Of a stretch of 64,000 bases of DNA, positions 53 to 64,000 are shown piece after piece (position 1 is the first letter of the stretch; each line of letters begins with the position of its first letter). The translations under genes were made by a program, and so were the position numbers. The DNA comes from Escherichia coli (GTDB taxonomy: Bacteria; Pseudomonadota; Gammaproteobacteria; Enterobacterales; Enterobacteriaceae): assembly GCF_003018255.1 (NCBI RefSeq), contig NZ_CP027440.1; one strand, 5' to 3'. Below the pieces are notes generated by a model. That model was not told the DNA's origin, ran no database searches, and worked only from the letters and a program-made list of their open reading frames with translations.

Positions 53-126
53 TGGAGCGGGCGAAGGGAATCGAACCCTCGTATAGAGCTTGGGAAGCTC
101 TCGTTCTACCATTGAACTACGCCCGC
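53..126 (-). tRNA. glyU: tRNA-Gly (anticodon CCC)
   Basis: Reverse complement reads GCGGGCGTAGTTCAATGGTAGAACGAGAGCTTCCCAAGCTCTATACGAGGGTTCGATTCCCTTCGCCCGCTCCA: acceptor stem pairs, T-arm GGTTCGATTCC, anticodon loop CTTCCCAAG, encoded CCA. Confidence 0.9.
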
Positions 127-13460: not shown

Positions 13461-13466
13461 TTTAAA

Positions 13467-13497
13467 GGCCGGGTGGGTAATACCATCCGGCCATTTT
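13467..13497 (+). terminator. intrinsic terminator after yqeA
   Basis: GGCCGGGTGG-gtaata-CCATCCGGCC hairpin followed by ATTTTC. Confidence 0.5.
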
Positions 13498-43186: not shown

Positions 43187-43243
43187 TATCGCATCAGGCA
43201 TTTATCGCCTGATGCGACACTGGTGTGTCTTTTCAGGCCTACA
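43187..43243. repeat. REP/BIME-type extragenic palindromic element
   Basis: GCCTGATGCGACactggtgtgtcTTTTCAGGCCTAC preceded by the inverted partial copy TCGCATCAGGC. Confidence 0.65.
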
Positions 43244-44407: not shown

Positions 44408-45868
<1,461 letters not shown>

Positions 45869-45877
45869 TTAGCCGAT

Positions 45878-45912
45878 GTGCCTGATGTGCTCCGCTCATC
45901 AGGCCTGGCACT
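45878..45912. repeat. REP-like palindromic element downstream of bglA
   Basis: TGCCTGATGtgctccgctCATCAGGCCTGGCA. Confidence 0.5.
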
Positions 45913-46032
45913 CTTTTAATATATTGAGCTCGCAATATTTTATATTACGCCTCAGTCGAAACACACAAAGCGCACTTTATTAACAAGCTAAAAGGCGCCG
46001 AAGCGCCTTTAGAAAATAGTCGAATCAGTGAA

Positions 46033-48906
46033 TTACTGGTATTCGCTAATCGGTACGCAGGAGCAGAACAGGTTACGGTCGCCGTAAACATCATCCAGAC
46101 GTTTCACTGTCGGCCAGTATTTGTCTGCCACGCCTGCCGGGAATACCGCAACTTCACGGCTGTACGGATGCGCCCACTCGGCGACCAGTTCGCTCTGAAT
46201 GTGCGGCGCGTTCACCAGCGGGTTATCTTCCAGCGGCCAGACACCGGCTTTCACCTGGTTAATTTCTGCGCGGATAGCCAGCATCGCGTCGATAAAGCGA
46301 TCCAGTTCCACTTTGCTTTCGGATTCGGTCGGTTCAACCATCAGCGTACCCGCCACCGGGAATGACATGGTCGGCGCGTGGAAACCGTAGTCGATCAGAC
46401 GCTTGGCAATATCCAGTTCGCTGATGCCGGTTTCTTCTTTCAGCGGACGAATATCAAGAATACATTCGTGCGCCACGCGACCGTCGCGACCGGTATACAG
46501 CACCGGGAAAGCATCCTGCAGGCGGCTGGCAATATAGTTGGCGTTAAGAATTGCCACCTGGCTTGCTTTTTTCAGCCCTTCTGCGCCCATCATGCGGATG
46601 TACATCCAGCTGATTGGCAGGATAGAGGCACTACCGAACGGTGCCGCAGAAACCGCGCCCTGACGGGTTAACATGCCTTCGATTTGCACCACGCTATGAC
46701 CCGGTACAAACGGTGCCAAATGCGCTTTCACACCGATCGGTCCCATACCTGGGCCGCCGCCACCGTGCGGAATGCAGAAAGTTTTATGCAGGTTAAGGTG
46801 CGAGACGTCCGCGCCAATAAAGCCCGGTGAGGTGATGCCGACCTGGGCGTTCATGTTCGCGCCATCAAGGTAAACCTGACCGCCGAACTGATGCACGACT
46901 TCACACACTTCACGGATCGTTTCTTCGTACACGCCGTGGGTGGAAGGATAAGTCACCATGATGCAGGAGAGATTATCGCCCGCCTGTTCCGCTTTCGCGC
47001 GCAGGTCAGTCAGATCGATGTTGCCATTTTTATCACATGCCACAACCACCACCTGCATTCCTGCCATATGTGCAGAAGCGGGGTTAGTTCCGTGCGCAGA
47101 AGCCGGGATCAGGCAGATATCGCGATGCCCTTCGTTGCGGCTTTCATGATAATGACGAATCGCCAGCAGGCCCGCATATTCGCCCTGTGCACCAGAGTTC
47201 GGCTGCATACAAACGGCGTCGTAACCGGTCAGTTTCACCAGCCAGTCAGCCAACTGCGCAATCATCTGCTGATAACCTTCTGCCTGTTCCGGCGGGCAGA
47301 ACGGGTGCAGTTCGGCAAATTCCGGCCAGGTGATGGGGATCATCTCGGCGGCGGCGTTCAGTTTCATGGTGCAGGAACCCAGCGGGATCATCGCCTGATT
47401 CAGCGCCAGATCTTTACGCTCCAGCGAGTGCATATAGCGCATCATTTCGGTTTCGCTGTGGTAGCGATTAAACACCGGATGGGTGAGGATTTCGTCGTCG
47501 CGCAACATTGCAGGCTGAATAGAGCGGCTATCGTGAGCCACGTCTTTGTCCAGCGTGTCGATGTCCAGTCCGTGGTTATCGCCCAGCAGTACGCTGAAAA
47601 GCTGCATCACGTTTTCACGCGTGGTGGTTTCATCAAGGGTGATCCCAACCGCGTTCAGAATATCGCTACGCAGGTTGATTTCAGCCGCTTCGGCACGCGC
47701 CAGTACGCCCGCTTTGTCGGCCACTTCCACACACAAAGTGTCGAAATAGTGCGCATGACGCAGTTTCAGACCTTTTTGTTGCAGGCCCGCCGCCAGGATA
47801 TCGGTCAGACGGTGGATGCGGTTAGCGATACGTTTCAGGCCCACCGGGCCGTGATAAACGGCATACAGGCTGGCGATGTTTGCCAGCAGTACCTGGGAAG
47901 TACAAATGTTGGAGTTCGCTTTCTCACGGCGAATATGTTGCTCGCGAGTCTGCATCGCCATGCGCAGAGCGGTATTGCCAGCTGCATCTTTCGATACACC
48001 GATAATACGGCCCGGCATTGAGCGTTTGTATTCATCTTTCGCCGCAAAGAATGCTGCGTGTGGGCCACCGTAGCCCATCGGCACACCGAAGCGTTGCGCC
48101 GAACCAAAGACAATATCCGCGCCCTGTTTACCAGGCGCAGTTAACAGCACCAGCGCCATAATATCGGCGGCGACACTGACCACAATTTTGCGTGATTTCA
48201 GTTCGCTGATGAGCGCAGTGTAGTCGTGGATTTCACCGGTTGTGCCAACCTGCTGTAACAGCACGCCGAAGACGTCCTGATGGTCGAGCACTTTTTGCGC
48301 GTCATCGACAATCACTTCAAAACCAAAGGTTTCGGCACGAGTACGTACCACATCCAACGTTTGCGGATGGACGTCAGAAGCAACAAAGAAGCGGTTGGCA
48401 TTTTTCAGTTTGCTGACGCGTTTAGCCATCGCCATTGCTTCGGCGGCAGCGGTGGCCTCGTCCAGAAGAGAAGCAGAGGCCATATCCAGTCCAGTCAAAT
48501 CCAGCGTTACCTGCTGGAAGTTGAGCAGTGCTTCAAGGCGGCCCTGGGAGACTTCAGGTTGATACGGAGTATACGCGGTATACCAGCCCGGATTTTCCAG
48601 CATGTTACGCAGAATAACCGGCGGTAGCTGCACGGCGGTGTAACCCATGCCGATGTAAGACGTGAAGCGTTTATTGCGACTGGCAATAGCCTTGAGTTCC
48701 GCCAGCGCGGCGTATTCGGTCGCCGGTGCGCCAACCTGCGGCGGGGTCGCAAGCTGAATATCTTTCGGCACAATCTGGCCGGTCAGCGCGTTTAACGATT
48801 GTGCGCCAACGGCATTCAGCATTTCTTGCTGTTGCGCGGCGTCCGGTCCGATATGGCGTTCAATAAAAGCGCCGCTGTTTTCAAGCTGGCTTAACGTCTG
48901 TGTCAT
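46033..48906 (-). CDS. gcvP: glycine dehydrogenase (decarboxylating), glycine cleavage P protein
   Basis: Track ORF extends to 48990; start trimmed to MTQTLSQLE (957 aa). Confidence 0.9.
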
Positions 48907-55847: not shown

Positions 55848-56031
55848 ATTTCTCTGAGATGTTCGCAAGCGGGCCAGTCCCCTGAGCCGATATTTCATAC
55901 CACAAGAATGTGGCGCTCCGCGGTTGGTGAGCATGCTCGGTCCGTCCGAGAAGCCTTAAAACTGCGACGACACATTCACCTTGAACCAAGGGTTCAAGGG
56001 TTACAGCCTGCGGCGGCATCTCGGAGATTCC
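55848..56031 (+). ncRNA. ssrS: 6S RNA (RNA polymerase sigma-70 holoenzyme regulator)
   Basis: Matches my recollection of E. coli 6S RNA from ATTTCTCTGAGATGTTCGCAAGCGGGCCAG... to ...CATCTCGGAGATTCCCT; lies between zapA and fau; 3' end approximate to a few nt. Confidence 0.85.
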
Positions 56032-56654: not shown

Positions 56655-56713
56655 GGGCGACACACCTGCATCGCCCTGATTGACATCGTTGATTCTTTAA
56701 CCTAATTTAGTGA

Positions 56714-56852
56714 GTAAGGGTAAGGGAGGATGACTCCTCCCCTGAGACTGACTGTTAATAAGCTGGGAAACTTATGAGTAACAGTACAATCAGTATGATG
56801 ACAAGTCGCATCATAACCCTTCTCCTTCAAGCCCTCGCTTCGGTGAGGGCTT
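56714..56852 (+). ncRNA. sibC: SibC antisense sRNA (type I antitoxin), approximate ends
   Basis: Fully overlaps ibsC on the opposite strand; candidate -35 TTGACA (56680-56685) and -10 TAATTT (56702-56707); 3' hairpin GCCCTC-gcttcggtg-AGGGCTTT at 56829-56852; length about 139 nt fits Sib RNAs. Confidence 0.55.
56754..56813 (-). CDS. ibsC: Ibs-family type I toxin, 19-aa hydrophobic peptide
   Basis: Minus-strand ORF ATGATGCGACTTGTCATCATACTGATTGTACTGTTACTCATAAGTTTCCCAGCTTATTAA = MMRLVIILIVLLLISFPAY; below the ORF-track size cutoff. Confidence 0.7.
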
Positions 56853-56995: not shown

Positions 56996-57029
56996 AAACG
57001 GGCAAGTCAGTGACCTGCCCGTTGATTTT
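56996..57029 (-). terminator. intrinsic terminator downstream of serA (T tracts on both sides)
   Basis: AACGGGCA-agtcagtgacc-TGCCCGTT hairpin flanked by AAAAAAA (minus-strand T run) and GATTTTCA. Confidence 0.55.
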
Positions 57030-57042
57030 CAGATAAGGGGAT

Positions 57043-58275
57043 TTAGTACAGCAGACGGGCGCGAATGGTACCCGGAATAGCTTTCATTGCCTGCAGCGCT
57101 TTTTCGGCAACGTCTTCGTCGGCTTCAATATCAATAACTACATAACCCATCTGGGCGGAAGTTTGCAGATATTGCGCGGCGATGTTGACGCCCTGCTCGG
57201 CAAAAATTTTGTTGAGCGCAGTCAGCACACCCGGACGGTTTTCGTGGATGTGCATCAGACGACGACCACCGTGCAGTGGCAGCGAGACTTCCGGGAAGTT
57301 CACCGCAGAGAGCGTTGAACCATTATCAGAATACTTGATCAATTTACCCGCAACTTCCAGACCGATATTCTCCTGCGCTTCCTGAGTCGAACCACCAATG
57401 TGTGGCGTCAGAAGGACATTGTCGAATTCACACAGCGGAGAGGTAAATGGATCGCTATTGGTCGCCGGTTCCGTCGGGAATACGTCGATTGCCGCCCCTG
57501 CCAGATGTTTGCTCGCCAGCGCGTCACACAGCGCTGGAATATCCACCACAGTACCGCGCGAAGCATTAATCAGCAGCGAGCCGGGCTTCATTAGCGAAAT
57601 CTCTTTCGCGCCCATCATATTTTTGGTGGACGGATTCTCTGGTACATGCAGACTCACCACATCGCTCATATTCAGCAGGTCAGAAAGATGCTGTACCTGA
57701 GTGGCGTTGCCCAGCGGCAGTTTGTTTTCAATATCATAAAAGTAAACATACATTCCCAGCGATTCAGCCAGAATGCCCAATTGCGTACCAATATGACCGT
57801 AGCCGATGATACCCAGCTTTTTGCCGCGCGCTTCAAAAGAACCCGCCGCCAGTTTGTTCCACACGCCACGATGCGCTTTAGCATTGGCTTCCGGCACGCC
57901 GCGCAATAGCAGCAGCAGTTCGCCAATCACCAGCTCCGCAACAGAGCGCGTATTTGAGAACGGTGCGTTAAATACCGGGATCCCGCGTTTTGCCGCCGCA
58001 TCCAGATCAACCTGGTTTGTTCCGATACAGAAACAGCCAATAGCGACCAGTTTTTCTGCGGCGTTGATCACGTCTTCAGTCAGATGGGTACGGGATCGCA
58101 GGCCGATGAAGTGGGCATCGCGGATGGATTCTTTTAATTGTTCATCATCCAGCGCGCCTTTGTGAAATTCGATGTTGGTGTAACCCGCTGCACGAAGGCT
58201 TTCCAGCGCCTTTTGGTGCACGCCTTCTACCAGCAGAAACTTAATCTTGTCTTTCTCCAGCGATACCTTTGCCAT
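57043..58275 (-). CDS. serA: D-3-phosphoglycerate dehydrogenase
   Basis: 410 aa; NAD-binding GIIGYGHIGTQLG; C-terminal ACT-like regulatory region. Confidence 0.95.
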   Translation of the reverse strand: MAKVSLEKDKIKFLLVEGVHQKALESLRAAGYTNIEFHKGALDDEQLKESIRDAHFIGLRSRTHLTEDVINAAEKLVAIGCFCIGTNQVDLDAAAKRGIPVFNAPFSNTRSVAELVIGELLLLLRGVPEANAKAHRGVWNKLAAGSFEARGKKLGIIGYGHIGTQLGILAESLGMYVYFYDIENKLPLGNATQVQHLSDLLNMSDVVSLHVPENPSTKNMMGAKEISLMKPGSLLINASRGTVVDIPALCDALASKHLAGAAIDVFPTEPATNSDPFTSPLCEFDNVLLTPHIGGSTQEAQENIGLEVAGKLIKYSDNGSTLSAVNFPEVSLPLHGGRRLMHIHENRPGVLTALNKIFAEQGVNIAAQYLQTSAQMGYVVIDIEADEDVAEKALQAMKAIPGTIRARLLY

Positions 58276-58530
58276 TTACCCAATCCTGTCTTTTGAAATG
58301 TTGTGTGCGGATTTGCATCCGCCTTTCAACATATCAAAAAATAATATTGCGGCAATATGAACGTTTGCGTCACGATATTGAGGAAATATCACGCAAAGGT
58401 ATTTCTTGGATGAATATGCTGGTTTAGAGGGTTTATTTAGAGCAATCGACAATAGCCAGGTAAAAACGTGACACATGTCACCAAATTTAATGAAGAGAAT
58501 TTTTTTAACGGGGGAGGTTCCCCCGTCAGA

Positions 58531-59190
58531 TCATTTCACAATGGTTTTGACACCGTCAGGTGTGCCAATCAGCGCAACGTCCGCGCCACGGTTAGCAAAC
58601 AAGCCAACAGTCACCACGCCAGGAATCGCATTTATGGCGTTTTCCATCGCTATCGGGTCAAGGATTTCCATGCCGTGGACGTCGAGGATCACGTTGCCGT
58701 TATCGGTCACCACGCCCTGACGGTATTCCGGACGACCGCCCAGTTTCACCAGCTGGCGCGCCACTGCACTACGTGCCATCGGGATAACTTCTACTGGCAG
58801 CGGGAATTTGCCCAGAATATCAACCTGCTTGGAGGCGTCGGCAATACAGATAAATTTTTCCGCAACCGAAGCAATGATTTTTTCACGGGTCAGCGCCGCG
58901 CCGCCGCCTTTGATCATTTGCATGTGGCCGTTGATTTCATCTGCGCCATCAACGTAGATGCCAAGGCTGTCGACTTCGTTGAGATCAAAAACGTGAATGC
59001 CGAGGCTTTTCAGTTTTTCAGTGGAAGCATCTGAACTGGAAACGGCCCCTTCAATCTGGCCTTTCATCGTGCCGAGCGCGTCAATAAAGTGTGCGGCGGT
59101 GGAACCTGTACCTACACCAACAATGGTGCCGGGCTGAACATACTGAAGTGCCGCCCATCCTACTGCTTTTTTCAATTCATCCTGCGTCAT
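58531..59190 (-). CDS. rpiA: ribose-5-phosphate isomerase A
   Basis: Track ORF to 59262; start trimmed to [18 protein letters not shown] (219 aa). Confidence 0.9.
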
Positions 59191-59571
59191 GATCGTTTCG
59201 CCTGTGGTATGAAATTTCACACGCATTATATACAAAAAAAGCGATTCAGACCCCGTTGGCAAGCCGGGTGGTTAACTCATCCATAAAATATCGCGCAATG
59301 GCGGGCATCCCCTTTCGCCCCGCAAATAAAGCATACAACGGTCTGGGTATGCCGCTCCACGATGCGAACAGAGGCAATAACGCCACGCCATTCAACACAA
59401 CCAGGGCGCGAACTCGCTGAGCGAAATGCATTAGCGCAAATCCCTGATCTTTTAAGCTGCGCGTTAACCACTGATACAAATGTTACCCGCCAACGACTTC
59501 GGTATATGCAACCTGACACAAAATTGTGTCATAGTGCAGGAAAAAGCATTTACCAGGAGCAGACAACAGCA

Positions 59572-60465
59572 ATGAAACGCCCGGACTACAGAACATTACA
59601 GGCACTGGATGCGGTGATACGTGAACGAGGATTTGAGCGCGCGGCACAAAAGCTGTGCATTACACAATCAGCCGTCTCACAGCGCATTAAGCAACTGGAA
59701 AATATGTTCGGGCAGCCGCTGTTGGTGCGTACCGTACCACCGCGCCCGACAGAACAAGGGCAAAAACTGCTGGCACTGCTACGCCAGGTGGAGTTACTGG
59801 AAGAAGAGTGGCTGGGCGATGAACAAACCGGTTCAACTCCGCTGCTGCTTTCACTGGCGGTCAACGCTGACAGTCTGGCGACGTGGTTGCTTCCGGCGCT
59901 GGCTCCTGTGTTAGCTGATTCGCCTATCCGCCTCAACTTGCAGGTAGAAGATGAAACCCGCACTCAGGAACGTCTGCGCCGCGGCGAAGTGGTCGGCGCG
60001 GTGAGTATTCAACATCAGGCGCTGCCGAGTTGCCTTGTCGATAAGCTCGGTGCGCTCGACTATCTGTTCGTCAGCTCAAAACCGTTTGCCGAAAAATATT
60101 TCCCTAACGGCGTAACGCGTTCGGCATTATTGAAAGCACCTGTGGTCGCTTTTGACCATCTTGACGATATGCACCAGGCCTTTTTGCAGCAAAACTTCGA
60201 TCTGCCTCCTGGCAGCGTACCCTGCCATATCGTTAATTCTTCGGAAGCGTTCGTGCAACTTGCTCGTCAGGGCACCACCTGCTGTATGATCCCGCACCTG
60301 CAAATCGAGAAAGAGCTGGCCAGCGGTGAACTGATTGACTTAACGCCAGGGCTATTTCAACGACGGATGCTCTACTGGCACCGCTTTGCTCCTGAAAGCC
60401 GCATGATGCGTAAAGTCACTGATGCGTTGCTCGATTATGGTCACAAAGTCCTTCGTCAGGATTAA
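59572..60465 (+). CDS. argP: LysR-type transcriptional regulator ArgP (IciA)
   Basis: Track ORF 59362..60465; start trimmed to [15 protein letters not shown] (297 aa); N-terminal HTH. Confidence 0.9.
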
Positions 60466-60478
60466 TCCATCAAATAAT

Positions 60479-60500
60479 GCCTGATAGCACATATCAGGCG
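60479..60500. repeat. hairpin / REP-like palindrome downstream of argP
   Basis: GCCTGATAGCACATATCAGGCG. Confidence 0.4.
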
Positions 60501-60668
60501 TTATCCTCACTTCTTTTTGTATTCCTTGAATCACATCACAAAATAGACAAATCTCAGGCGGCAAAAAACGACGTCTGAATGCATTTTTTTTGCTGGCGAC
60601 AAACCCACGTAAAAAGCTCACCGTAAGCGCAAATACCCTCATTTTGATTGCGTTTTACGGAGCAAATA

Positions 60669-62813
60669 ATGTCTAAGGTGCAGGAGTGGCAACAGCTTGC
60701 CAACAAGGAATTGAGCCGTCGGGAGAAAACTGTCGACTCGCTGGTTCAGCAAACCGCGGAAGGGATCGCCATCAAGCCGCTGTATACCGAAGCCGATCTC
60801 GATAATCTGGAGGTGACAGGTACCCTTCCTGGTTTGCCTCCCTACGTTCGTGGCCCGCGTGCCACTATGTATACCGCCCAACCGTGGACCATCCGTCAGT
60901 ATGCTGGTTTTTCAACAGCAAAAGAGTCCAACGCTTTTTATCGCCGTAACCTGGCCGCCGGGCAAAAAGGTCTTTCCGTTGCGTTTGACCTTGCCACCCA
61001 CCGAGGCTACGACTCCGATAACCCACGCGTGGCGGGCGACGTCGGCAAAGCGGGCGTTGCTATCGACACCGTGGAAGATATGAAAGTCCTGTTCGACCAG
61101 ATCCCGCTGGATAAAATGTCGGTTTCGATGACCATGAATGGCGCAGTACTACCAGTACTGGCGTTTTATATTGTCGCCGCAGAAGAGCAAGGTGTTACAC
61201 CCGATAAACTGACCGGCACCATTCAAAACGATATCCTCAAAGAGTATCTTTGCCGCAACACCTATATTTACCCGCCAAAACCGTCAATGCGTATTATCGC
61301 AGACATCATCGCCTGGTGTTCCGGCAACATGCCGCGATTTAATACCATCAGTATCAGCGGTTACCACATGGGTGAAGCGGGTGCCAACTGCGTGCAGCAG
61401 GTAGCATTTACGCTCGCCGATGGGATTGAGTACATCAAAGCAGCAATCTCCGCCGGGCTGAAAATTGATGACTTCGCTCCTCGTCTGTCGTTCTTCTTCG
61501 GCATTGGCATGGATCTGTTTATGAACGTCGCCATGTTGCGTGCGGCACGTTATTTATGGAGCGAAGCGGTCAGTGGATTTGGCGCACAGGATCCGAAATC
61601 ACTGGCGCTGCGTACCCACTGCCAGACCTCAGGCTGGAGCCTGACTGAACAGGATCCGTATAACAACGTTATCCGCACCACCATTGAAGCACTGGCTGCA
61701 ACGCTGGGCGGTACTCAGTCACTGCATACCAACGCCTTTGATGAAGCGCTTGGTTTGCCTACCGATTTCTCAGCACGCATTGCCCGCAATACCCAGATCA
61801 TCATTCAGGAAGAATCAGAACTCTGCCGCACCGTCGATCCACTGGCCGGATCCTATTACATTGAGTCGCTGACCGATCAAATCGTCAAACAAGCCAGAGC
61901 TATTATCCAACAGATCGACGAAGCCGGTGGCATGGCGAAAGCGATCGAAGCAGGTCTGCCAAAACGAATGATCGAAGAGGCCTCAGCGCGCGAACAGTCG
62001 CTGATCGACCAGGGCAAGCGTGTCATCGTTGGTGTCAACAAGTACAAACTGGATCACGAAGACGAAACCGATGTACTTGAGATCGACAACGTGATGGTGC
62101 GTAACGAGCAAATTGCTTCGCTGGAACGCATTCGCGCCACCCGTGATGATGCCGCCGTAACCGCCGCGTTGAACGCCCTGACTCACGCCGCACAGCATAA
62201 CGAAAACCTGCTGGCTGCCGCTGTTAATGCTGCTCGCGTTCGCGCCACCCTGGGTGAAATTTCCGATGCGCTGGAAGCCGCTTTCGACCGTTATCTGGTG
62301 CCAAGCCAGTGTGTTACCGGCGTGATTGCGCAAAGCTATCATCAGTCTGAGAAATCGGCCGCCGAGTTCGATGCCATTGTTGCGCAAACGGAGCAGTTCC
62401 TTGCCGACAATGGTCGTCGCCCGCGCATTCTGATCGCCAAAATGGGCCAGGATGGGCACGATCGCGGCGCGAAAGTGATCGCCAGCGCCTATTCCGATCT
62501 CGGTTTCGACGTAGATTTAAGCCCGATGTTCTCTACACCTGAAGAGATCGCCCGCCTGGCCGTAGAAAACGACGTTCACGTAGTGGGCGCATCCTCACTG
62601 GCTGCCGGTCATAAAACGCTGATCCCGGAACTGGTCGAAGCGCTGAAAAAATGGGGACGCAAAGATATCTGCGTGGTCGCGGGTGGCGTCATTCCGCCGC
62701 AGGATTACGCCTTCCTGCAAGAGCGCGGCGTGGCGGCGATTTATGGTCCAGGTACACCTATGCTCGACAGCGTGCGCGACGTACTGAATCTGATAAGCCA
62801 GCATCATGATTAA
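60669..62813 (+). CDS. scpA: cobalamin-dependent methylmalonyl-CoA mutase
   Basis: Track ORF 60648..62813; start trimmed to [10 protein letters not shown] (714 aa); B12-binding DxHxxG motif ([10 protein letters not shown]). Confidence 0.9.
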
Positions 62814-63801
62814 TGAAGCCAAGCTAGCAGAAAGTATTCGCCGCTTACGTCAGGGTGAGCGTGCCACGCTCGCCCAGGCCATGACGTTGGTGGAAAGCCG
62901 TCACCCGCGTCATCAGGCGCTAAGTACACAGCTGCTTGACGCCATTATGCCGTTCTGTGGTAACGCCCTGCGACTGGGCGTTACCGGCACACCCGGCGCG
63001 GGGAAAAGTACCTTTCTTGAAGCCTTTGGCATGTTGTTGATTCGTGAGGGATTAAAGGTTGCGGTTATTGCGGTCGATCCCAGCAGCCCGGTCACTGGCG
63101 GTAGCATTCTCGGGGATAAAACCCGCATGAATGACCTTGCGCGTGCCGAGGCGGCGTTTATTCGCCCGGTACCCTCCTCCGGCCATCTGGGCGGTGCCAG
63201 TCAGCGAGCGCGGGAATTAATGCTGTTATGCGAAGCGGCGGGTTATGACGTAGTGATTGTCGAAACGGTTGGCGTCGGGCAGTCAGAAACGGAAGTCGCC
63301 CGCATGGTGGACTGTTTTATCTCGTTGCAAATTGCCGGTGGCGGCGATGACCTGCAGGGCATTAAAAAGGGGCTGATGGAAGTGGCAGATCTGATCGTTA
63401 TCAACAAAGACGATGGCGATAACCATACCAATGTCGCCATTGCCCGGCATATGTACGAGAGTGCCCTGCATATTCTGCGACGTAAATACGACGAATGGCA
63501 GCCACGGGTTCTGACTTGTAGCGCACTGGAAAAACGTGGAATCGATGAGATCTGGCACGCCATCATCGACTTCAAAACCGCGCTAACTGCCAGTGGTCGT
63601 TTGCAACAAGTGCGGCAACAACAATCGGTGGAATGGCTGCGTAAACAAACCGAAGAAGAAGTACTGAATCACCTGTTCGCGAATGAAGATTTCGATCGCT
63701 ATTACCACCAGACGCTTTTAGCGGTCAAAAACAATACGCTCTCACCGCGCACCGGCCTGCGGCAGCTCAGTGAATTTATCCAGACGCAATATTTTGATTA
63801 A
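62806..63801 (+). CDS. argK: G3E-family P-loop GTPase (methylmalonyl-CoA mutase chaperone MeaB/ArgK)
   Basis: 331 aa; Walker [10 protein letters not shown]; overlaps the scpA stop by 8 nt. Confidence 0.9.
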
Positions 63802-63811
63802 AGGAATTTTT

Positions 63812-64000
63812 ATGTCTTATCAGTATGTGAACGTTGCCACTATCAACAAAGTGGCGGTCATTGAGTTTAACTATGGCCGAAAACTTAATGCCTTAAGTAA
63901 AGTCTTTATTGATGATCTTATGCAGGCGTTAAGCGATCTCAACCGGCCGGAAATTCGCTGTATCATTTTGCGCGCGCCGAGTGGATCCAAAGTCTTCTCC
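63812..64000 (+). CDS. scpB: methylmalonyl-CoA decarboxylase (crotonase fold), 5' partial at window edge
   Basis: ATG at 63812 after AAGGAA; MSYQYVNVATINKVAVIEFNYGRKLNAL...; runs off the window. Confidence 0.8.
   Translation, partial: MSYQYVNVATINKVAVIEFNYGRKLNALSKVFIDDLMQALSDLNRPEIRCIILRAPSGSKVFS

Follow-up and report, generated by a model that had tools for sequence, protein, structure and literature searches.

Gene content of the locus

The window, a stretch of 64,000 nucleotides, belongs to the E. coli chromosome and is collinear with K-12 from glyU to scpB (K-12 positions 2,998,947-3,064,181). At its right-hand end the following genes and junctions lie at their usual chromosomal place, downstream of argP:

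60669-62813, + strand: scpA (sbm), AdoCbl-dependent methylmalonyl-CoA mutase by family, Pfam and structure matches; 714 aa, complete ORF
62806-62813, + strand: scpA/argK overlap ATGATTAA, 8 nt, with the argK start codon inside the scpA 3' end
62806-63801, + strand: argK (ygfD/meaB), MeaB-type G3E GTPase, mutase partner; 331 aa, complete ORF
63802-63811, + strand: argK-scpB spacer AGGAATTTTT, 10 nt, carrying a Shine-Dalgarno-like AGGA
63812-64000, + strand: 5' part of scpB (ygfG), biotin-independent methylmalonyl-CoA decarboxylase of the crotonase fold; codons 1-63 of 261

The scpA frame opens with the ATG at 60669, runs through 714 codons without interruption and closes with the stop codon at 62811-62813, the argK frame is likewise uninterrupted through its 331 codons, and scpB, starting with the ATG at 63812, stays open up to the window end, which it reaches after 24% of its length. 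The remaining 198 scpB codons (76%) and scpC fall beyond that point. RefSeq places the genes at these same coordinates in a genome with 100% identity to the window over 60400-64000. The first-pass annotation had called the operon intact and its genes tightly overlapped. The former holds for the full ORFs of scpA and argK but goes too far for scpB, only partly in the window, and for scpC, outside it; the latter is right for scpA and argK but not for argK and scpB, which are 10 nt apart with no overlap. The 8-nt overlap suggests translational coupling of the mutase and GTPase genes. Antisense ORFs within scpA and argK (61983-62459, 63243-63575, and others) were treated as spurious.

Start codon and upstream region

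Two features were located 5' of scpA:

60479-60499, strand unassigned: 8-bp perfect inverted repeat GCCTGATAGCACATATCAGGC, 14 nt past the argP stop, in the argP-scpA spacer
60659-60662, + strand: GGAG, Shine-Dalgarno-like, 6 nt 5' of the scpA ATG

An in-frame TTG at 60648 was considered as the scpA start and rejected, because the spacing of the GGAG element and the gene calls in both RefSeq (strain 200164) and K-12 favour the ATG at 60669. The argP-scpA spacer is 203 nt long and differs from that of K-12 at 2 of the 203 positions. The inverted repeat may form a putative argP terminator hairpin. It was also picked up by the consensus scan, on the minus strand only.

A sigma-70 promoter scan of 60300-64000 gave no plus-strand site 5' of scpA, and the sole sigma-70-like match in that interval is on the minus strand, within scpB. 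The absence of a plus-strand match is consistent with a weak scpA promoter, short of proof. Rfam gave no cobalamin riboswitch or other RNA element at the gathering threshold (whole window) or at E<=1 (60300-64000), the sole match in the latter interval, to PYLIS_3, being sub-threshold (20 bits vs 38, E=0.42) and taken as chance. As for srsR/ygfI, the neighbouring LysR gene, as a candidate regulator, the SrsR paper (PMC9181523) makes no mention of scp, sbm, methylmalonyl or propionate.

Identity of the three gene products

ScpA matches the equivalog model NF006944 with 1251.4 bits (cutoff 876), its residues 4-713 covering positions 6-718 of the 721 in the profile. By Pfam it consists of an N-terminal substrate-binding barrel domain (PF01642, residues 28-539, 781.6 bits) followed by a C-terminal B12-binding domain (PF02310, residues 586-701, 73 bits). 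Structures of human methylmalonyl-CoA mutase (MCM) match it with 928 bits and the P. shermanii enzyme (1REQ_A) with 901 bits. A regular-expression search placed the cobalamin-binding motif in the C-terminal domain:

62451-62468, + strand: DxHxxG motif, D595-G-H597-D-R-G600 (DGHDRG)

The histidine of this motif is the lower cobalt ligand of cobalamin. The motif had been reported from the first reading of the sequence, and its residues 595-600 do align with the identical six-residue stretch in human MCM. The pattern occurs again at residue 635 (DVHVVG), where it was regarded as due to chance. Three further segments, TIRQYAGF (residue 74), RNTY (196) and SGYH (230), are likewise conserved in the aligned human MCM, and we take the Tyr of the first, the Arg of the second and the Tyr-His of the third, from the P. 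shermanii literature, to form a substrate pocket and active site of the MCM type, unlike that of isobutyryl-CoA mutase. The K-12 ScpA protein, which is 99.3% identical to the one encoded here, is reported, in work cited by PMC5512728, to carry out the AdoCbl-dependent interconversion of succinyl-CoA and methylmalonyl-CoA. By homology, the scpA product is a methylmalonyl-CoA mutase, with its activity inferred from this K-12 orthologue.

ArgK scores above the cutoffs of both MeaB equivalog models, NF006958 (494.3 bits, cutoff 329) and TIGR00750 (453.1 bits, cutoff 240.75), and residues 22-294 match the Pfam MeaB family (PF03308, 419.9 bits). Motif searches identified two nucleotide-binding elements:

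62986-63009, + strand: Walker A, GTPGAGKS, residues 61-68
63403-63414, + strand: NKDD, the GTP-specific NKxD motif, residues 200-203

The protein is near-identical to PDB 2P67 (E. coli YgfD), and it is here that a different function has to be considered. The titles of 2P67, 3NXS and 6CUM read "LAO/AO transport system kinase/ATPase", PMC5512728 uses the description "membrane-bound ATP kinase" for argK, and the historical gene name agrees, all of which would place ArgK in the lysine/arginine/ornithine (LAO) transport system as its kinase rather than make it a mutase chaperone. We consider this extremely unlikely given the MeaB family assignments above, the scores of 304 and 303 bits to the M. 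extorquens MeaB structures (8DPB and 2QM7) and of 264 bits to human MMAA, and the fact that MMAA has been solved in complex with the mutase in a structure (8GJU) matched by both ScpA and ArgK. In addition, the NKxD motif is specific for GTP, and the argK start codon lies within the last 8 nt of the mutase gene. On this homology ArgK is a G3E GTPase and the predicted mutase chaperone.

The ScpB fragment matches profile positions 1-63 of 261 of NF008506 with 81.6 bits, below the cutoff of 257 only because it is truncated by the window end, and 62 of its 63 residues are identical to PDB 1EF8_A (E. coli MMCD). Family models and solved structures thus agree, for all three genes, with the mutase, G3E GTPase and decarboxylase originally named. 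The active-site residues of ScpB are presumably His66 and Tyr140, as described in the 1EF8 structure paper; His66 lies 3 codons past the window end, and both residues are present in ScpB of strain 200164.

Strains 200164 and E04 are each 100% identical to the window over 60400-64000 and are both annotated with scpA, meaB and scpB under the match. In strain 200164, the sole one examined downstream, scpB and scpC are full length and all four genes are intact, with ScpB at 486.8 bits (cutoff 257), ScpC at 754.5 bits (cutoff 658.7) and no internal stops in these full-length proxies. The best complete-genome matches are 100% over 3.6 kb, 99.5% over 9.6 kb and 99.1% over 25 kb, and since the best 25-kb match is only 99.1% the intactness of the downstream part rests on proxy genomes. 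From these near-identical genomes, it is very likely that the present strain has an intact scpB and scpC, and a downstream lesion in the source genome is possible.

Variation and selection across E. coli

In K-12 the scpA-argK-scpB-scpC genes (sbm-ygfD-ygfG-ygfH, b2917-b2920) occupy the same position after argP in the same order, and the junctions match those described here, with scpA and argK overlapping by 8 nt and argK and scpB 10 nt apart. The two loci show allelic differences only, at about 2% of nucleotides and mainly synonymous, leaving ScpA identical at 709 of 714 residues, ArgK at 327 of 331 and the ScpB fragment at 62 of 63 (5, 4 and 1 residue differences). The present allele is rare: 2 of 5425 complete genomes carry it with 100% identity and 114 with at least 99%. 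The dN/dS values relative to K-12 are 0.053 for scpA and 0.049 for argK, and 0.035 for scpB and 0.031 for scpC. Because the values lie between 0.03 and 0.05, we conclude from this comparison that scpA and argK in the present strain are under purifying selection, maintained and not decaying, and the same pattern indicates that purifying selection acts on the genes in strains that have the operon.

The full operon is found in about 79% of 5,426 complete E. coli genomes, full-length DNA matches being obtained in 4280 of 5426 with a scpA-argK query and in 4304 of 5426 with a scpB-scpC query. A common deletion, in which most of scpA through scpC is gone and what is left of scpA is joined to the scpC end, is present in 1114 of the 5426 (~21%), including Nissle 1917, NC101 and O127:H6. 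It appears, from the shared junction, to be a single ancestral event confined to one strain set, not many independent decays. Sporadic independent lesions were also seen; for example, strain ET5 has an IS1 insertion and the scpA annotation of S1-ISR-02-A is split. A search for literature on a phylogroup-linked deletion gave nothing beyond a comment on one strain, ATCC 25922, which lacks the operon (PMC12750587).

The loss of the operon from some 21% of genomes means that it is dispensable, and together with the sporadic lesions, the silence in laboratory culture and the lack of de novo B12 synthesis in E. coli (PMC3850637) it could be read to mean that the operon is an evolutionary relic, strictly cryptic, no longer useful and heading to decay. 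This we think improbable. Drift without constraint would give dN/dS of about 1, whereas each of the four genes falls at 0.03-0.05 and has a full-length reading frame, the 203-nt spacer upstream has just the 2 differences from K-12, and the loss appears as one ancestral junction in a limited set of strains and not to many independent decays.

Proposed pathway and its physiological role

We conclude, with a probability of roughly 95%, that the locus is the well-characterised "sleeping beauty mutase" operon, represented by its first two genes and a quarter of its third; none of the evidence speaks against this identification. The mechanism has been established for the K-12 orthologues and is carried over here by 99% identity. 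In this scheme, ScpA with adenosylcobalamin would convert succinyl-CoA to methylmalonyl-CoA, while the ArgK/MeaB G3E GTPase, by analogy with MeaB and MMAA, would bind the mutase, gate cofactor loading and guard against inactivation. ScpB would then decarboxylate methylmalonyl-CoA to propionyl-CoA without biotin, and ScpC, encoded outside the window, would move CoA from propionyl-CoA to succinate, releasing propionate and regenerating succinyl-CoA. Little flux would be expected in laboratory culture unless the operon is overexpressed and cobalamin is supplied, because E. coli has no de novo route to B12 and the operon's own promoter is probably weak. This is in line with published work, in which the genes are hardly expressed, the operon is silent in laboratory culture, the wild type makes no propionate and at least 0.2 uM cyanocobalamin is needed (PMC3850637). 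The operon had been described at first as cryptic or poorly expressed, and the literature says the same, silent or poorly expressed and in need of added B12 (PMC3850637, PMC5512728).

The three genes had further been said to make up the succinate-to-propionate pathway. The assignment to that pathway is right, but the set is incomplete, given that the CoA transferase ScpC is needed and an epimerase may be missing (PMC5512728). The same source calls the native operon an incomplete pathway, in which the mutase yields (R)-methylmalonyl-CoA and the decarboxylase is said to use the (S) form, and states that propionate from glucose required an added heterologous methylmalonyl-CoA epimerase. It is conceivable, if rather doubtful, that the main role of the operon is not a natural succinate-to-propionate fermentation but the processing of the propionyl-CoA and methylmalonyl-CoA that arise when amino acids or odd-chain substrates are broken down, or the reverse flow from propionate to succinyl-CoA; the textbook cycle would in that case lack an epimerase. 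Neither K-12 nor strain 200164 has an epimerase gene adjoining the operon; the sbm operon gave propionate in rich medium only, through the breakdown of amino acids, and the operon permitted isoleucine degradation (PMC5512728); and its metabolic context has been said to remain "ambiguous", maybe involving succinate and propionate assimilation (PMC3850637). On the other hand, coupling of ScpA to ScpB in vitro converted succinyl-CoA to propionyl-CoA (Haller et al. 2000, as relayed by PMC5512728), and in several engineering studies the overexpressed operon gave propionate or 1-propanol without an added epimerase (PMC3850637). The sequence itself gives nothing to tell the two directions apart.

Retaining the sleeping beauty mutase assignment, we tentatively put forward, as a speculation with the odds against it, that under natural conditions the operon is not in fact "sleeping". 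It might be kept by selection in non-B2 E. coli and convert succinate or amino-acid-derived methylmalonyl-CoA to propionate in the gut, where corrinoids and succinate from the microbiota are present. If so, the ancestral deletion in B2-type strains (Nissle 1917, NC101 and O127:H6 among the 1114 genomes) would mark a real metabolic difference between lineages.

Significance and comparison with known systems

The genes, structures, pathway and laboratory silence have been known since 2000, such that the locus carries little weight as a discovery, and the operon is in routine metabolic-engineering use for propionate, 1-propanol and odd-chain polymers. The useful outcome is a set of corrections, namely that scpB is cut by the window, that only one junction overlaps, and that the cycle requires ScpC and perhaps an epimerase as well. 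It should also be noted that E. coli is truly polymorphic for the "intact" state, the same operon deletion being carried by about one fifth of its complete genomes.

The human mitochondrial pair of MMUT and MMAA follows the same two-protein logic of a mutase and its G3E chaperone: ScpA aligns with MMUT over residues 6-707 (928 bits), including the same DxHxxG segment, and ArgK with MMAA at 264 bits. Mammals differ in that they carry flux from propionyl-CoA towards succinyl-CoA, employ a separate carboxylase and epimerase, and have no decarboxylase or CoA-transferase partner. The P. shermanii mutase (1REQ) of the Wood-Werkman cycle shares the chemistry, the domain architecture and the succinate-to-propionate logic (901 bits to the alpha chain), but it has two subunits, alpha and beta, whereas the present locus has a single mutase gene. 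Propionibacteria moreover use an epimerase and a biotin-dependent transcarboxylase, in contrast to the biotin-independent, crotonase-fold ScpB of E. coli (PMC5512728). Finally, in IcmF, the fused isobutyryl-CoA mutase/GTPase (NF045497), homologous mutase and G3E GTPase modules are joined in one protein; ScpA (348.7 bits) and ArgK (107.6 bits) score far under its 1500-bit cutoff and are encoded at the present locus by two separate, overlapping genes.

Gene layout of the scp operon

A six-frame listing of open reading frames over 57000-64000 returned a 721-codon frame at 60648-62813 (+) in which scpA lies. The TTG at 60648 was rejected as the scpA start in favor of the ATG at 60669, which is preceded by a GGAG and is the start annotated in K-12 and in the RefSeq annotation of a genome that is 100% identical over the region.

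Features of the scp region
60659-60662: GGAG, 6 nt before the scpA ATG at 60669
60669-62813 (+): scpA, 714 aa, begins MSKVQEWQQ, stop at 62811-62813
62806-63801 (+): argK, 331 codons, stop TAA at 63799-63801
63812 (ATG) to the window's last base (+): 5' part of scpB, 63 codons in a stop-free frame

The scpA stop lies inside ATGATTAA, so that argK starts 8 nt ahead of the end of scpA, whereas argK and scpB do not overlap and are parted by a 10-nt spacer, AGGAATTTTT. The first-pass annotation had called all three genes tightly overlapped, which holds for the first junction but not for the second.

Identities of the encoded proteins

The genes had been read as a B12-dependent mutase, its G3E GTPase chaperone and a decarboxylase, and family models and structure matches bear this out. 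ScpA matches the NCBIfam methylmalonyl-CoA mutase (MCM) equivalog NF006944 end to end (1251 bits, cutoff 876), has the Pfam architecture MM_CoA_mutase (28-539) and B12-binding (586-701), and aligns with human mitochondrial MCM structures at 928 bits and with the P. shermanii alpha chain at 901 bits. The DxHxxG motif reported for the mutase is present as DGHDRG (residues 595-600, nt 62451-62468), and the aligned hexapeptide of human MCM is identical; a second pattern match at residue 635 is incidental. RNTY and two further MCM motifs, TIRQYAGF and SGYH, are likewise conserved, and we take these three to carry the active-site Tyr, Tyr-His, and Arg of MCM.

ArgK matches the MeaB equivalog NF006958 (494 bits, cutoff 329) and Pfam MeaB, is near-identical to the E. 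coli structure 2P67, and aligns with M. extorquens MeaB at 303-304 bits and with human MMAA at 264 bits. It carries the motifs GTPGAGKS and NKDD. Its former name, “LAO transport kinase”, is a historical misnomer, and the first-pass annotation as a G3E GTPase chaperone describes it better. The 63-residue ScpB fragment corresponds to positions 1-63 of NF008506, a methylmalonyl-CoA decarboxylase model of 261 positions, scoring under the cutoff solely because it is short, and is identical to PDB 1EF8 at 62 of 63 residues.

Integrity of the operon and its loss in E. coli

The operon had been described as intact: scpA and argK are indeed complete, but only 24% of scpB lies in the window and scpC is wholly beyond it. 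The 3.6 kb at 60400-64000 match two E. coli strains, 200164 and E04, at 100% identity, and in strain 200164 the downstream annotation gives scpB (261 aa), scpC (492 aa) and then a convergent srsR. ScpB and ScpC of that strain are free of internal stops, have 1 and 2 differences from K-12, respectively, and pass their family cutoffs. Extension by this proxy finds both genes uninterrupted in strain 200164; since the two strains match the window at 99.5% across the 9.6 kb overlap and at 99.1% across 25 kb, it carries over to the source genome as a matter of probability. Full-length scpB-scpC DNA is found in 4304 of 5426 complete genomes and full-length scpA-argK in 4280, hence the two halves almost always travel together. 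On these comparisons, the whole operon is likely intact in the source genome.

The segment at 60400-64000 is a rare allele, at least 99% identical in only 114 of 5425 genomes. Its 100% match to strains 200164 and E04, set against 99.5-99.1% over the 9.6-25 kb upstream (39001-60399), suggests a recombination mosaic.

Intactness is a meaningful state, given the deletion alleles in E. coli. Query coverage is about one third or less in 1145 of 5425 genomes. At the locus of strain AZ 187 (L003 4269-5324, equivalent to window 60669 onward), a 5' remnant of scpA with two small deletions of its own abuts the final 153 bp of scpC; ~4.26 kb are lost, and the adjacent srsR has an internal stop. Of 5426 complete genomes, 1114 carry nearly all of a 161-bp probe spanning this junction. 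Among them are Nissle 1917, NC101, and O127:H6, these three presumably of phylogroup B2, and the shared junction looks like one ancestral deletion. The operon is also absent from ATCC 25922 (PMC12750587). Strain ET5 has a sporadic independent lesion, an IS1A insertion under the scp match, in an otherwise full-length allele; strain S1-ISR-02-A, also otherwise full-length, has a shorter match and a separate “cobalamin-dependent protein” annotation, which suggests a frameshifted scpA.

Expression signals and selection

No sigma-70-like promoter was found on the + strand upstream of scpA and no cobalamin riboswitch by Rfam search, in keeping with weak native expression (PMC3850637). The scp genes are hardly expressed, possibly from a weak promoter, and no propionate is formed by the wild type; since E. 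coli does not synthesize B12, the overexpressed pathway is active only with cyanocobalamin at 0.2 uM or more (PMC3850637). Just 3' of the argP stop, a perfect inverted repeat with an 8-bp stem (60479-60499) was flagged by the scan on the minus strand; the + strand T-run begins only ~14 nt beyond it, a distance that does not fit a canonical intrinsic terminator.

By Nei-Gojobori comparison with K-12, with scpB and scpC taken from the strain 200164 proxies, dN/dS is 0.053 for scpA, 0.049 for argK, 0.035 for scpB, and 0.031 for scpC (synonymous to non-synonymous changes 29:5, 24:4, 8:1, and 19:2), and the 203-nt spacer upstream of scpA has 2 differences. Judged by these substitutions, the scp genes are being maintained. 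The label “cryptic” applies to them solely for their poor expression in the laboratory.

Proposed pathway

The mechanism, which we infer for this allele, is taken from published work on the K-12 orthologues (PMC3850637; PMC5512728, which cites Haller et al. 2000 as background). ScpA would interconvert succinyl-CoA and methylmalonyl-CoA with adenosylcobalamin as cofactor, the mutase being bound by ArgK/MeaB; ScpB would decarboxylate methylmalonyl-CoA to propionyl-CoA; and ScpC would transfer CoA from propionyl-CoA onto succinate, closing a cycle that would convert succinate to propionate and CO2. A caveat attaches to the first-pass wording that these genes make up the succinate-to-propionate pathway: PMC5512728 concludes that the native operon is an incomplete pathway. 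There the mutase product is the (R) enantiomer whereas the decarboxylase is thought to act on the (S) form, and an epimerase had to be added before propionate was obtained from glucose. The first-pass observation is essentially correct apart from two details, the single overlapping junction and the truncation of scpB by the window. Nothing in the scp locus is new, and its interpretation is the textbook one and correct on gene identity.

Chromosomal context and comparison with K-12

The window is E. coli chromosomal DNA, collinear with K-12 MG1655 2,998,947-3,064,181 at 96.5-98.2% identity. The gene order is glyU, the xdh/yge/ygf purine-catabolism cluster, lysS-prfB-recJ, gcvTHP, ubiHI, ssrS, sibC, serA, rpiA, argP, and scpA-argK-scpB'. 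Rfam at gathering threshold found no RNA in the whole window beyond three.

RNA genes matched at the Rfam gathering threshold
53-126 (-): tRNA-Gly(CCC), glyU
55848-56031 (+): 6S RNA, ssrS
56680-56830 (+): SibC antitoxin RNA, opposite the ibsC toxin ORF

Between bglA and gcvP, ygfF (b2902, a putative oxidoreductase, ~1 kb with flanks in K-12) is absent; only ~121 bp (45869-45989) containing a REP-like palindrome (gcctgatg...catcaggc) stand in its place, bglA stopping at 45868 and gcvP having its 3' end near 46033. A yqfE LysR-fragment pseudogene remnant (59246-59479, -), between rpiA and argP, is ~45 bp shorter than in K-12, with an indel near 59371, and is annotated by RefSeq in other strains as “hypothetical protein” or “LysR substrate-binding domain-containing protein”. 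Also missing are ~150 bp of the K-12 yqeA-yqeB intergenic sequence (~13466-13493) and ~90 bp of that between ygfZ and trhA (~43207-43235), probably variable REP-type elements.

At the scp operon, the geometry and position of the scpA-argK-scpB junctions are identical to those of K-12, and relative to K-12 the proteins of the window carry five substitutions in ScpA (N3K, H27Q, V537A, S565A, and E665K), four in ArgK (T6K, Y50F, T54A, and R301H), and one in the ScpB fragment (V9A).
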